From Longivirga aurantiaca (lineage in GTDB: Bacteria; Actinomycetota; Actinomycetes; S36-B12; CAIYMF01), in the NCBI RefSeq assembly GCF_042660085.1, contig NZ_JBHSTI010000003.1, forward strand, positions 1 to 32,000: a stretch of DNA of 32,000 bases. The letters run 5' to 3'. The notes beneath the pieces are model-generated. The model was not told the DNA's origin. It saw nothing but the letters and a program-made list of their open reading frames with translations, and searched no databases. The translations under genes were made by a program, and so were the position numbers. Of this stretch, positions 5,937-24,022 are shown piece by piece; the first letter of the stretch is position 1, and every line of letters begins with the position of its first letter.

Positions 5937-6054
5937 CGTTCGCGATGAAGGCGACCGTCATCCAATAGAACCGAACAATCCCGGCCATCATCCAGCGTTC
6001 TGGATGAAGGCGACCTTCATCCAATAGAGCCGAACAATCCCGGCCATCATCAAA
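5937..6054 (+). repeat. Two tandem 59-bp copies (A1 5937-5995, A2 5996-6054) of repeat family A
   Basis: Unit: CGTTC-NN-GATGAAGG-CGA-CC(G/T)TCATCC-AATAGA(A/G)CCGAACAATCCCGGCCATCATC. A2 has a perfect 9-bp stem and 3-nt loop (6002-6022); A1 has one stem mismatch. The element is AT-richer than its surroundings and lies between the Rieske-like stop and the ADC start. Confidence 0.85.
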
Positions 6055-21962: not shown

Positions 21963-22022
21963 GAGTTACTGCCCGAATGGTCGTTGAAGGGCATCGCTCA
22001 GCGACCCTTTGGGCAGTAACTC
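21963..22022. terminator. Long-range perfect 12-bp inverted repeat (36-nt interior with a nested stem) between convergent genes
   Basis: gagttactgccc (21963-21974) pairs with gggcagtaactc (22011-22022). The interior contains ggtcg...cgacc. It lies between the marR stop (21944) and the stop of the minus-strand gene (22039). Confidence 0.4.
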
Positions 22023-22038
22023 GAGACGCCTGCCGGCG

Positions 22039-22899
22039 TCAGGACGATGCGGTGCGCAGGCCCTCGGCGTACGCCGTGAGCGCGTCGGCGGCCGGGCCGA
22101 GCACGTCGTCGCCGCTGCGGCCGAGGTCGGGCGAGGCCAGCATCGTGGAGGCGGCGGCGAGCAGCCGGTCGTAGACCGCGACGCCCTGCGCGAGCCGGCC
22201 GCGCACCTGCTCGGCGGCGTCCGTGGCGGCCGTCGCGGCGGTCGAGCCGGGCAGCTCGCGGCGCACCTGGTCGAGCACGGCGAGGCGGGCGACCTGCGCG
22301 GTGAATGCGGGCGCGGCCTCGTCGTCGGCAGCCTTGAGCTCCTTGCCGGCGTCCGGGTGGAGCGAGGCGACGGCCGGCACCATGCTGACGAGCTGCCGGC
22401 GTACGGCGGCCAGGCCCTGCGACTCGGTGAATCCGATGGCGTCGCGGCGCAGGTCGTCGGCGCGGGTGATGGCAGACATCGTGGGCGGCTCGGGCGGGGT
22501 GATCGTGCGCGAGCGGTGCCGGGCGCTGACGGCACGGACGGCGAACAGGGCCGACCCCAGCAGCCACCACCATGGTGCGCCGGGGATGACGCCGTTGTCG
22601 GTGGCGACGGTGGCGGCGTCGATGAGGCCGAGCGTGCCTGCCGAGGCGGCGATCGCGGTGCTGGTGACCGCGCGCGACCGGAGGTCGACGACGCGCTTCT
22701 GGTGCTTGGTGACGGCCTTGGCGTGGGCCTCCATCGCCTTCGCGTGCTCTCGGGTGGCCTTGGTGCCCGATCCCTGGGCGAGCGCGTACGCCTCCGCGAC
22801 GTCGAGCCCCTGCTCGACGAGCGCGGTCACCCGCTCGGCCAGCTTGGCGACGTCCTTGCCCACACCCCCACGGTAAGCCCGCACCCCCGCCCCGGTCAT
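22039..22899 (-). CDS. Hypothetical membrane protein (287 aa: helical N-terminal region, two hydrophobic segments, Ala-rich C-terminal domain)
   Basis: The start was chosen at ATG 22899 (MTGAGVRAYRGGVGKDVAKLAERV...). Hydrophobic stretches are 'AVTSTAIAASAGTLGLIDAATVA' and 'APWWWLLGSALFAVRAV'. GC3 is strong. The upstream part of track ORF 22039-23343 looks like low-quality read-through. Confidence 0.7.
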   Translation of the reverse strand: MTGAGVRAYRGGVGKDVAKLAERVTALVEQGLDVAEAYALAQGSGTKATREHAKAMEAHAKAVTKHQKRVVDLRSRAVTSTAIAASAGTLGLIDAATVATDNGVIPGAPWWWLLGSALFAVRAVSARHRSRTITPPEPPTMSAITRADDLRRDAIGFTESQGLAAVRRQLVSMVPAVASLHPDAGKELKAADDEAAPAFTAQVARLAVLDQVRRELPGSTAATAATDAAEQVRGRLAQGVAVYDRLLAAASTMLASPDLGRSGDDVLGPAADALTAYAEGLRTASS

Positions 22900-23093
22900 G
22901 CCCGATCCCCGACCCGGCAGTTTGCGATGAAGGAGTCCTTCATCCAATAGACCCGAACAATCCTTCCCACCATGAGACAAGGGAAGCGGGCCCGGTCGGG
23001 GCCGGTCGTGCCCACGGCGTGATCTGTGCGGGTGTACGCATCCGACCAGAAGGCCCAGATCCAGTGCACGTCCGCCGCGGCAATCCGGCTCAC
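22896..23093 (-). CDS. Candidate small ORF (65 aa, Trp-rich); weak call
   Basis: GTG at 23093. The first ~37 codons have very high GC3 (VSRIAAADVHWIWAFWSDAYTRTDHAVGTTGPDRARF). The stop overlaps the ATG of the downstream gene (ATGA at 22896-22899). There is no SD, and the 3' third is encoded by repeat A3, so it may be fortuitous. Confidence 0.25.
   Translation of the reverse strand: MSRIAAADVHWIWAFWSDAYTRTDHAVGTTGPDRARFPCLMVGRIVRVYWMKDSFIANCRVGDRA
22919..22975 (+). repeat. Repeat family A, copy A3
   Basis: gtttgcGATGAAGG-agt-CCTTCATCCAATAGACCCGAACAATCCttcccaccatgag. The stem is kept (22926-22933 / 22937-22944) and the loop differs from A1/A2. It lies 20 nt from the start codon at 22899. Confidence 0.8.
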
Positions 23094-23150
23094 GACGATG
23101 ATGGGAACCTGAGTACTGCTCTATTGGATGAAGGTCGCCTTCATGTGGAA
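23090..23150 (-). repeat. Repeat family A, copy A4 (inverted orientation)
   Basis: The reverse complement reads ggttccacATGAAGGCGACCTTCATCCAATAGAGC-agtactcaggttc-CCATCATC. This is identical to A2 across the hairpin and CCAATAGAGC, with a different 13-nt block and the same CCATCATC end. The hairpin (23128-23144) lies 24 nt upstream of the hydrolase start. Confidence 0.8.
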
Positions 23151-23167
23151 CCCCGTAGGCTCGGGGG

Positions 23168-24022
23168 ATGCCGGTGGAGAGCGCGGAGCTGCATCTGGAC
23201 GACCCGGTGCTGGGTTCGGTCGTGCTGGACGCGGTCATGGCGGGGGCGGACGACGGCATCCCCGTGCTCCTGCTGCACGGCTGGCCGCAGACCTCCCTGT
23301 CGTGGCGGCAGGTCATCCCGCCGCTGGCGAGCTCGGGCTGCAAGGTCGTGGCGGTCGACCAGCGCGGCTACTCGCCGCAGACCCGCCCCGTCGACGTCTC
23401 GGCGTACGCGCTGCCGCACCTCGTGCACGACGCCGTCGGCATGATCGAGGCGCTCGGCTGGGAGAGCGCGCACGTCGTGGGGCACGACTGGGGCGCGGTC
23501 GTCGCCTGGGCCCTCGCCGCCCAGCGCCCCGAGCTCGTCCGCACCCTCACCGCCGTCTCGGTGCCGCACCCGCAGGCGTTCAACGCCGCGCTGAAGTCCG
23601 ACCCCGTGCAGTGGAAGAAGTCGGCGTACATGGCGCTGTTCCGCACCGCGCCCGGCAAGGCCGCGCAGGTGCTGCTGCGCGACGGCGCGAAGGCGCTGCG
23701 CGAGGTGTACGGCGATGCCGTGCACAAGGTCGACGTCGAGCGGTACGTCGAGTTCTTCAGCGACGACGACGCGATGGAGGCGTCGCTGCGGTGGTACGCC
23801 GCGATGGGCGGCGACCAGTTCAAGGACATCGGACCGGTCGACGTGCCGACCACGTTCGTGTGGGGCAACGACGACGTCGCGATCGGCGCGCAGGCCGCGC
23901 GCGGGTGCGGCGAGTGGTGCCGCAACGACTTCGAGATGCGCGTGCTCACCGACCGCGGCCACTGGATCCCTGACGAGGACCCCGACGCGCTCGTCGACGC
24001 GATCCTCGCCCGGATCGGCTGA
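23168..24022 (+). CDS. Alpha/beta-fold hydrolase (epoxide-hydrolase/haloalkane-dehalogenase-like)
   Basis: 'VLLLHGWPQTSLSWRQVIPPLA' is an HGxP-type oxyanion motif, 'VVGHDWGAVVAW' is the nucleophile elbow with Asp, and 'GHW' lies near the C-terminus. Confidence 0.9.
   Translation: MPVESAELHLDDPVLGSVVLDAVMAGADDGIPVLLLHGWPQTSLSWRQVIPPLASSGCKVVAVDQRGYSPQTRPVDVSAYALPHLVHDAVGMIEALGWESAHVVGHDWGAVVAWALAAQRPELVRTLTAVSVPHPQAFNAALKSDPVQWKKSAYMALFRTAPGKAAQVLLRDGAKALREVYGDAVHKVDVERYVEFFSDDDAMEASLRWYAAMGGDQFKDIGPVDVPTTFVWGNDDVAIGAQAARGCGEWCRNDFEMRVLTDRGHWIPDEDPDALVDAILARIG

Follow-up and report, generated by a model that had tools for sequence, protein, structure and literature searches.

The region between two divergently transcribed genes of Longivirga aurantiaca holds two hairpin-bearing repeats, here called A3 and A4, that face each other, which raises the question of what such a pair is and what keeps it in place. 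The locus lies within the first 32,000 nucleotides of contig NZ_JBHSTI010000003.1 (assembly GCF_042660085.1, forward strand); this whole stretch is referred to below as the window, and the genome of the window (a metagenome-assembled genome of an uncultured actinobacterium, 3.67 Mb in 71 contigs) as G000. The original prediction had read the pair as REPIN-like, that is, as a doublet of repetitive extragenic palindromic (REP) units mobilized by a REP-associated tyrosine transposase (RAYT), or as two operators. REP-type repeats rank with the most common non-coding features that bacterial genomes have; to our knowledge, RAYTs are the only kind of enzyme so far tied to them, mainly in Proteobacteria. 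The reading that we favor, with moderate confidence, is that A3 and A4 are dispersed non-coding copies of a repeat family (family A), that the cognate partner of this family is a gene for a predicted AbiEi-Vsr/DUF559-like nuclease, and, less surely, that the repeat core may have spread in a homing-like manner.

A3 and A4 belong to a dispersed repeat family

A pattern for the 24-nt repeat core matched five times in the window (0.00 expected from 100 shuffles) and 31 times in the genome at up to two mismatches, with no match for the reversed control. Family A has about 30 copies in G000, and a profile search finds about 68 units when the B and long-hairpin forms are included. Aligned copies give a unit consensus of about 55 nt, consisting of a 5′ module (GTTYGCG), a hairpin (GATGAAGG-CGA-CCTTCATC), and a tail (CAATAGAGCCGAACAAT). 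The family-A tail is strongly conserved and non-palindromic; it begins CCAATAGAGCCGAAC and leads into a variable stretch ending CC(A/T)TCA(T/C). Besides solo units and a tandem pair, there are "doubles," in which two tails stand around one common 31-bp perfect palindrome, a long form, in which the loop is replaced by a 45-nt GC-rich hairpin, and the sister family B (GATGAAGG-GGG-CCTTCGTTGC-TCAGAGC-GCAAC...; about 20 copies in G000). Called genes, predicted from third-position GC content (GC3), are avoided by 61 of the 68 units. The family thus has the features of REP elements and bacterial interspersed mosaic elements (BIMEs), broadly understood, being made of short imperfect palindromes that are multi-copy, extragenic, and lineage-specific. 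A coding function (mini open reading frames MKATFIQ*, and MMGRIVRLYW on the other strand) was rejected in view of stops present in variants and of a 1-nt variation in the long form.

The inverted pair itself, as originally predicted, is present between divergent starts at 22899 (−) and 23168 (+), and a repeat search of the window returned its arms as 47 nt long, 77% complementary, and 124 nt apart. A3 consists of the 5′ module GTTTGCG and the hairpin GATGAAGG-AGT-CCTTCATC followed by CAATAGACCCGAACAATCCTTCCCACCATG, its tail being listed as CCAATAGACCCGAACAATCCTTCCCACCATG. A4 follows the same plan, with a 7-bp stem (ATGAAGG-TCG-CCTTCAT) and a diverged tail, so that its match to the family is limited to about 27-38 nt. 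Some dimensions had been overstated: the palindrome of A3 is 19 bp long and that of A4 17 bp, rather than 21 bp, and the two units cover about 110 bp of the 268-bp intergenic region (22900-23167) rather than almost all of it. The hairpins had been placed roughly 24-27 nt from the nearer start codon; the distance is 26 nt for A3 (+) and 23 nt for A4 (−). The spacer between the units has no second copy in the genome, a genome-wide search having returned chance matches of 14-19 nt only. As single-stranded DNA, each hairpin is modestly stable (−6.5 to −7.8 kcal/mol, z about −2 to −3; −7.5 kcal/mol and z −3.0 for A3), and the whole pair can be folded into one long hairpin (z −3.8), as can any inverted repeat.

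Pairs like A3/A4 recur elsewhere in the genome. Neighboring units less than 4 kb apart in G000 comprise 10 (+,−) pairs, in which the tails point inward and the 5′ modules outward, no non-overlapping (−,+) pair, seven pairs of the same orientation, and five overlapping doubles; the tails-inward arrangement of A3/A4 is thus typical of the family. Short forward-then-reverse doublets of 150-230 bp also predominate in several related genomes, where they are alike in spacing and unrelated in spacer sequence. The DNA bracketed in G000 ranges from 30-121 bp (the A3/A4 type) up to one or two ordinary genes, among them those for an MFS transporter, a CDGSH protein, a dienelactone hydrolase, an SDR, and a PadR protein with an inositol-phosphate synthase.

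A predicted nuclease gene is flanked by the matching repeat variant

One bracketed gene stands out. It lies outside the window on another contig (C8:113648-114634), is single-copy, encodes 328 amino acids, and is flanked by inverted family-A units at C8:113526-113581 (+) and 115131-115205 (−). Residues 9-184 of the product match AbiEi (PADLOC, E 2.7e-9), and AbiEi_4 was matched in 12 of 12 orthologs. For the C-terminal domain, sequence searches gave sub-threshold matches only (DUF559, E 0.018; REase_MTES_1575, E 0.003). An AlphaFold model of the protein (pLDDT 82.6) was compared with known structures by Foldseek, which returned AbiEi (6Y8Q) at E 7e-5 and, for the C-terminal domain, the DUF559-like 3HRL (probability 0.95) and the catalytic domain of I-Bth0305I (3R3P; probability 0.89). 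Residues P244, D245, D258, S259, E261, and H263 are invariant and E256 is conserved in at least 90% of the sequences; the motif PD...EVDSREHH is invariant or close to it. The protein is accordingly predicted, from the modeled fold, to be an AbiEi-type winged-helix domain fused to a Vsr/DUF559-like PD-(D/E)xK endonuclease. Homologs are known only from metagenomes, where they are labeled as hypothetical, as "very-short-patch-repair endonuclease," or as "AbiEi family antitoxin domain."

A classical REPIN mobilized by a RAYT, a transposase of the Y1/HUH type, would share with this arrangement the inverted doublets, the hairpins, the intergenic sites, and the single-copy partner gene between repeats. 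The enzyme required for it was not found: as far as the Pfam Y1_Tnp model can detect it, PF01797 is missing from G000 and from all 28 genomes surveyed in the genus, whereas six control genomes were positive. Moreover, neither the A nor the B hairpin has a GTAG tag at its 5′ end, the fold of the partner protein is unrelated, and the spacer between A3 and A4 is unique. We give this explanation a negligible chance. What stands of the REPIN proposal is a recurrent, inverted, dispersed REP-like pair with tails inward; mobilization by a RAYT and replication of the pair as a unit do not.

The association between the nuclease gene and the repeat was then followed across genomes. Thirteen further genomes of the genus have an ortholog, at 53-81% identity, and a second genus (G044) has one at 48%; the gene of G020 is cut off at a contig end, leaving 14 loci with readable upstream DNA (G000 and 13 others). 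In all 14, the genome's own repeat variant stands about 100 nt upstream of the gene, followed by a conserved TCCACAG box. Downstream, an inverted copy is detectable at 13 of these loci, immediately past the stop codon in some and on the far side of yjbR in others; in G024 it amounts to a 13-nt match. The variant that flanks the gene is the one dispersed in that genome, so that across relatives the gene lies between inverted copies of a dispersed repeat with matching flank and dispersed variants. In genomes with few detected copies, two of three flank the gene in G041, and one of four or five adjoins it in G004 and G017.

This relation allows a prediction, namely that a variant taken from the gene flank alone should be multi-copy in its own genome only, and in five of five cases this was found. 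The flank variants of G042, G015, and G044 occur 14, 31, and 31 times in their own genomes, respectively, and not at all in the four others tested with each. For G005 (flank of a 37% identical paralog), 33 copies were counted in its own genome, eight in G006, whose own variant is similar, and none in three others; for G022 (39% paralog), the values were 26, five in G023, again with a similar variant, and none in three others. In seven of 11 other genomes, paralogs that are more distant (second-tier) are likewise flanked by inverted repeats of their own. A second gene-repeat pair was also noted in G000 itself, where a 29% identical paralog with an in-frame TGA (C8:1168627-1169520) is flanked on both sides by a separate 62-bp repeat family, GTTACCCGGGTAAC, whose repeats there (CGTTACCCGGGTA) are spaced by 62 bp.

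Among the 27 other genomes of the genus, 13 have gene and repeats, 11 have neither an ortholog nor A/B repeats (although a second-tier paralog and repeats belonging to it are present in some), and three have A/B repeats without an ortholog. Family A proper was found in four of 24 other sampled genomes of the genus and in none of 16 genomes from the order's other families; when species representatives were scanned for exact words, two metagenome-assembled genomes only were matched, both labeled "Candidatus Nanopelagicales bacterium." Of 27 genomes of the genus, 12 contain B-like variants, each genome with its own homogeneous version, and some versions show compensatory changes in the stem (e.g. 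GAATG-TGC-CATTC in G020). Taken together, the association of gene and repeat in this genus is strong.

The gene unit occupies several positions, between radA and yjbR in seven genomes, between yjbR and a further gene (geneX) in the opposite orientation in six, and elsewhere in two; the radA-yjbR-geneX arrangement is empty in G009, G005, and G006. Among five compact cassettes there are four (G001, G042, G044, and, less strictly, G012) whose TGA stop codon coincides with the start of the right repeat or lies inside that start, and the conserved ...TCAY terminus of the family is accounted for by this. A stop codon inside the right repeat recalls insertion sequences. Inversion of the nuclease-yjbR segment between the repeats was considered and found no support: no inversion of the gene was seen, and the orientation of yjbR is constant, with the nuclease gene to one side or the other.

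The copy upstream of the nuclease gene carries an extra module after its tail, GACGGCGTYGTCCACAGG (C8:113582-113610), which resembles the DnaA box TTATCCACA. The same module was also observed after dispersed copies at C24:155-175, C24:2830-2850, C41:1443-1460, and C2:290989-291005, as if it had been copied to varying lengths from a gene-flanking template.

Orthologous sites keep the repeat and switch its core

The original prediction had proposed a comparison of orthologous intergenic regions for presence or absence of the pair and for a target-site duplication. Presence does vary, with five distinct states of the A3/A4 region in five relatives. In G042 the region is empty, with about 55 nt between both start codons; G007 has a long-form remnant only, on the hydrolase side; G021 has a full long-form unit at the A4 position and degenerate sequence at the A3 position; G018, whose flanks are 89-91% identical, has an inverted pair of B units at the A3 and A4 positions; and a metagenome relative (L108, the single relative returned by one metagenome scan) has about 210 nt of unrelated sequence. 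The two positions thus vary independently, and this, with the unique spacer, speaks against the pair as a replicating unit. The second part of the comparison was negative: a target-site duplication was not found.

Genome-wide, the positions of the units are mostly stable. Of 28 placeable unit sites of G021 and G007, 26 also hold a unit-sized insert in G000. In orthologous A-A pairs, a 35-nt core shows 0-3 differences between species, in flanks that are 6-27% diverged. At about 11 sites, one genome has an A unit where its partner has B or the long form, and several of these keep a copy-specific distal end; the A3/A4 locus is itself such a case (A in G000, B in G018). That orthologous sites keep the element yet switch its core from A to B suggests, from these alignments, homogenization driven by the nuclease.

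These results also bear on the possibility that the units are miniature inverted-repeat transposable elements, or else solo terminal repeats from a conventional DDE insertion sequence, with a transposase, lost or unassembled, acting on them in trans. Inverted pairs with a fixed outer end and short doublets of 150-230 bp would be expected of such elements, and insertion sequences could be missing from an assembly of 71 contigs. This explanation appears very unlikely to us nonetheless: no target-site duplication was found at any inspected junction, the nuclease gene is the only gene bracketed consistently across genomes, with no transposase bracketed, the other bracketed genes are residents that are present without elements in relatives, and positions are mostly common to species while cores switch.

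Three further models of insertion were tried and set aside. A mobile gene cassette does not account for the finding that in G042 and G009 the dienelactone hydrolase gene and yjbR hold the same positions although elements are lacking there. In a site-specific integration model, a palindrome of two 5′ modules would be attB and the tail-hairpin-tail double attP; both pair members carry the loop CGA in unit orientation, and conservative recombination predicts complementary loops. The same CGA loop in both members, in place of complementary loops, argues against the hairpin being a target-site duplication.

Two bracketed sites were recorded in passing. The slot C8:1777000-1781800, bounded in G000 by long-form units, is variable between two conserved genes and contains a dienelactone hydrolase gene in G000, G007, G021, G018, and G042, a RidA-like gene in seven others, and 1-7 kb of other DNA elsewhere. 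At C21:1943-2919, a pair of A units surrounds only about 870 bp, which read as a broken PatB/MalY-type aminotransferase gene whose N- and C-terminal parts are in different frames.

A possible mechanism of core conversion

Under the favored reading, the partner protein would bind the hairpin core through its winged helix and cut at or near the core. Repair templated by another unit would then spread the core, keep the copies alike, and convert older variants in place, and A3/A4 would be an older B-type pair, as still present in G018, whose cores were overwritten. The conservation of the core, its switching, the stable positions, the partial duplications described below, the varied positions of the gene unit, the placement of its stop codon, and the lack of a target-site duplication together fit a core-recognizing nuclease combined with templated repair. 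A narrower version of this, which we put forward tentatively and as less likely than not, is that the nuclease is a domesticated keeper of its own sites, RAYT-like yet different in mechanism, that would cut non-cognate units preferentially, with repair overwriting the 35-nt core by the cognate sequence and the repeat family being propagated and kept uniform in this way; this would be homing-like conversion and not transposition, and A3/A4 would be an overwritten B doublet.

The partial duplications are "stutters" of the 5′ module ahead of several units, e.g. GTGTGCGATGAAGC|GTGTGCGATGAAGG, and may be junctions of new sequence with an older unit. Stutters comprising the 5′ module and the 5′ stem arm were seen at C8:102799-102826, C8:1024640-1024680, C8:1550745-1550780, and C8:1719290-1719335.

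Residues of the recognition helix covary with the core, A/L-W/H-S/E-E/Q-Q-V being found with CCAATAGAG cores and S/G-R-S-x-x-L with GTTGC..AGAG..GCAAC cores. This was not retained as evidence, being inseparable from phylogeny.

Several observations weigh against core conversion by the partner nuclease. The strict tails-inward rule is unexplained by it. Assignment of the nuclease rests on the predicted fold and on sub-threshold sequence matches. Gene and repeats are limited to the same clades, which makes their co-occurrence, and the counts given above, phylogenetically non-independent. In G018 the gene has been lost (a deletion remnant of its upstream region is visible), yet this genome keeps at least 16 well-conserved B copies, and the B family of G000 is present without a B-type gene. 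Because 26 of the 28 tested sites are occupied across species, recent movement is not demonstrated, and neither a target-site duplication nor a precise empty/filled junction was seen at the inspected junctions.

Placement of the units and the promoters at A3/A4

Most units have their 5′ end within 1-30 nt of a gene boundary; the codon faced is a stop in 37 cases and a start in 29, and many units stand between convergent genes. A separate GC-rich, terminator-like hairpin is often found ahead of them. The features of the window are collected in Table 1.

Table 1. Family-A units in the window and features of the A3/A4 intergenic region
Feature	Position	Strand	Details
A1, family-A unit	5938..5992	+	First of tandem pair; begins 1 nt past the stop codon of the upstream gene
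A2, family-A unit	5997..6051	+	Second of tandem pair, 59-nt period
Left flanking gene	22039..22899	−	286 amino acids, no Pfam family
A3, family-A unit	22920..22974	+	Hairpin 22926-22944; nhmmer E 1.4e-13
Spacer between A3 and A4	22975..23095		121 bp, unique in genome
A4, family-A unit, diverged tail	23096..23153	−	Hairpin 23128-23144; nhmmer E 1e-08
TAGGCT, candidate −10 box	23156..23161	+	6 nt ahead of hydrolase start codon
Right flanking gene, α/β hydrolase	23168..24022	+	PF00561, E 7.6e-30

Both mRNAs had been proposed to carry the same 5′ stem-loop if transcription starts further upstream. For the left gene this is probable: a conserved GGGGA box resembling a Shine-Dalgarno sequence lies 6 nt ahead of the start, between A3 and the start, and the leader therefore probably runs into A3. 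For the hydrolase gene it is doubtful. A TAGGST box 6 nt before the start was found in all six sequences compared (the window and five relatives), with or without elements, and a TANNNT-type box at this distance is typical of leaderless actinobacterial genes. Since this conserved box directly follows A4, whose 5′ module ends beside it, the hydrolase transcript is probably leaderless and without the A4 hairpin, its promoter −10 box abutting the unit.

The units might alternatively act at the RNA level, as terminators or as mRNA-stabilizing or 5′-untranslated stem-loops. Consistent with this, 37 units in the sense orientation begin 1-60 nt past a stop codon, two G-U pairs are added to the B-type stem on just one strand, as read from the sequences, and the left gene's leader probably includes the A3 hairpin. 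The units nevertheless occur in either orientation relative to neighboring genes, and 29 of 66 face starts; A3/A4 lie between divergent starts. They lack a U-tract, several follow a separate terminator-like hairpin, and the most conserved part is the non-palindromic tail. They do not therefore qualify as intrinsic terminators or TRIT-like elements, and an Rfam scan of 22000-24000 gave chance matches only, even at E 10. We regard a primarily RNA-level role as quite unlikely.

A regulon of operators, the second idea of the original prediction, deserves somewhat more attention. Here the units would be sites through which the AbiEi-type protein, mainly a transcription factor, would repress or coordinate about 60 loci, including the membrane-protein and hydrolase genes flanking A3/A4, and its nuclease domain would be irrelevant or inactive. 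AbiEi antitoxins do autoregulate through inverted repeats in their own promoters (PMC7319586), and the unit upstream of the nuclease gene in all 14 readable loci would fit this, as would the 35-nt core being far better conserved than its flanks. A4 lies directly against the −10 box of the hydrolase gene, and TANNNT boxes are also found 4-12 nt downstream of several other units. However, units facing stops outnumber those facing starts, many lie between convergent genes, and the flanked genes are functionally unrelated. Whole 55-nt units, tandems, and doublets are unlike degenerate operator sets, orthologous promoters without any unit work (G042, L108), and the candidate catalytic residues are invariant or nearly so. 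Such a regulon is in our judgment improbable. A sigma-70-type promoter within the unit was rejected as well, the hexamers being inconsistent and the distance to TANNNT boxes variable.

With core conversion as the favored reading, A4 would have replaced the region upstream of the hydrolase −10 box, and A3 would be located inside the leader of the left gene or upstream of it. The two units would then offer binding sites for the protein beside both promoters, as a side effect and not as a dedicated regulatory design; a regulatory role of A3/A4 is possible and would probably be a by-product.

Some structural variants were noted separately. In the tandem pair 5938-6051, the end of A1 can pair with the 5′ arm of A2. 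Tailless palindromes, with two 5′ modules around one hairpin (GTGTGCGATGAAGG-GGG-CCTTCATCGCACAC), occur at C18:5679-5709 and C25:5171-5201. A separate palindromic repeat, CGTCGA(C/T)GCGTGATCA...TGATCACGCGTCGACGG, is present once or twice in one shared intergenic slot of three relatives, G020:C18 (L098), G012:C55 (L099), and G022:C6 (L100).

Comparison with known systems

The genus offers a clean comparative case in which an unrelated winged-helix/Vsr-like nuclease appears to be the repeat partner in high-GC Actinobacteria, based on 14 loci in two genera with matched variants, paralogs with repeats in seven of 11 genomes, and five flank predictions borne out. If core conversion is true, it would explain what keeps short repeats identical across long spans of evolution, why inverted repeats so often enclose DUF559 genes, and how repeats can rewire promoters, as at the hydrolase gene, and it would give annotators a rule for recognizing such families.

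For the nuclease-repeat partnership, no description was found in print; the only trace found is the enrichment of DUF559 genes among predicted targets of programmed inversion, with an odds ratio of 14.3 (PMC9881135). That study is a published statistical sign of a tendency of DUF559 genes to lie between inverted repeats and makes no link to dispersed families, nor does it propose a partnership. AbiEi antitoxins, as represented by Mycobacterium tuberculosis homologs, bind inverted repeats upstream of their own genes (PMC7319586), and the N-terminal 180 residues of the partner protein match AbiEi both in sequence models and in fold (Streptococcus agalactiae, PDB 6Y8Q). The locus differs from an AbiE type IV toxin-antitoxin system in that no AbiEii (DUF1814) nucleotidyltransferase gene follows, the downstream gene being yjbR or none, in that a C-terminal nuclease domain is fused, and in that the repeat is dispersed genome-wide.

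In its C-terminal fold and its acidic/histidine motif, the partner resembles I-Bth0305I (Vsr-like EDxHD, PDB 3R3P) and DUF559 (PDB 3HRL). The likeness to the homing endonuclease may extend to a selfish logic in which cutting and templated repair spread a sequence. Unlike I-Bth0305I, the partner has no intron or intein context, and what its predicted activity would spread is a 35-55-nt non-coding site and not the nuclease gene.

REP/BIME mosaic elements, reportedly described by Di Nocera and colleagues in 2013 as built of palindromes tagged with GTAG or CGTC, are alike in their modular make-up, the modules here being the 5′ module, the hairpin, the optional 45-nt loop insert, the tail, and the TCCACAG module. 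Tandem and inverted arrangements and species-specific sequence at conserved intergenic positions are further common traits. Family A differs from them in having no 5′ tag tetranucleotide, a lower copy number, and a different associated protein.

A functional parallel is the REPIN-RAYT system of REP doublets and REP-associated tyrosine transposases (PMC2817692; PMC3116915; bioRxiv 10.1101/2021.07.10.451892). Both systems have short hairpin repeats that lie between genes and number in the tens, as well as inverted doublets and long persistence at conserved sites, together with a single-copy, vertically inherited partner gene that lies between inverted copies and whose flanks are matched by genome-specific variants. 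They part in the partner, here a predicted AbiEi winged-helix/Vsr-DUF559-like nuclease in place of a Y1/HUH transposase, in the unit, whose non-palindromic tail is long and conserved and which lacks a GTAG tag, in the doublets, whose spacers are not conserved, and in the switching of core type at orthologous sites. The REPIN/RAYT interpretation of A3/A4 is thus right in architecture and wrong in enzyme.

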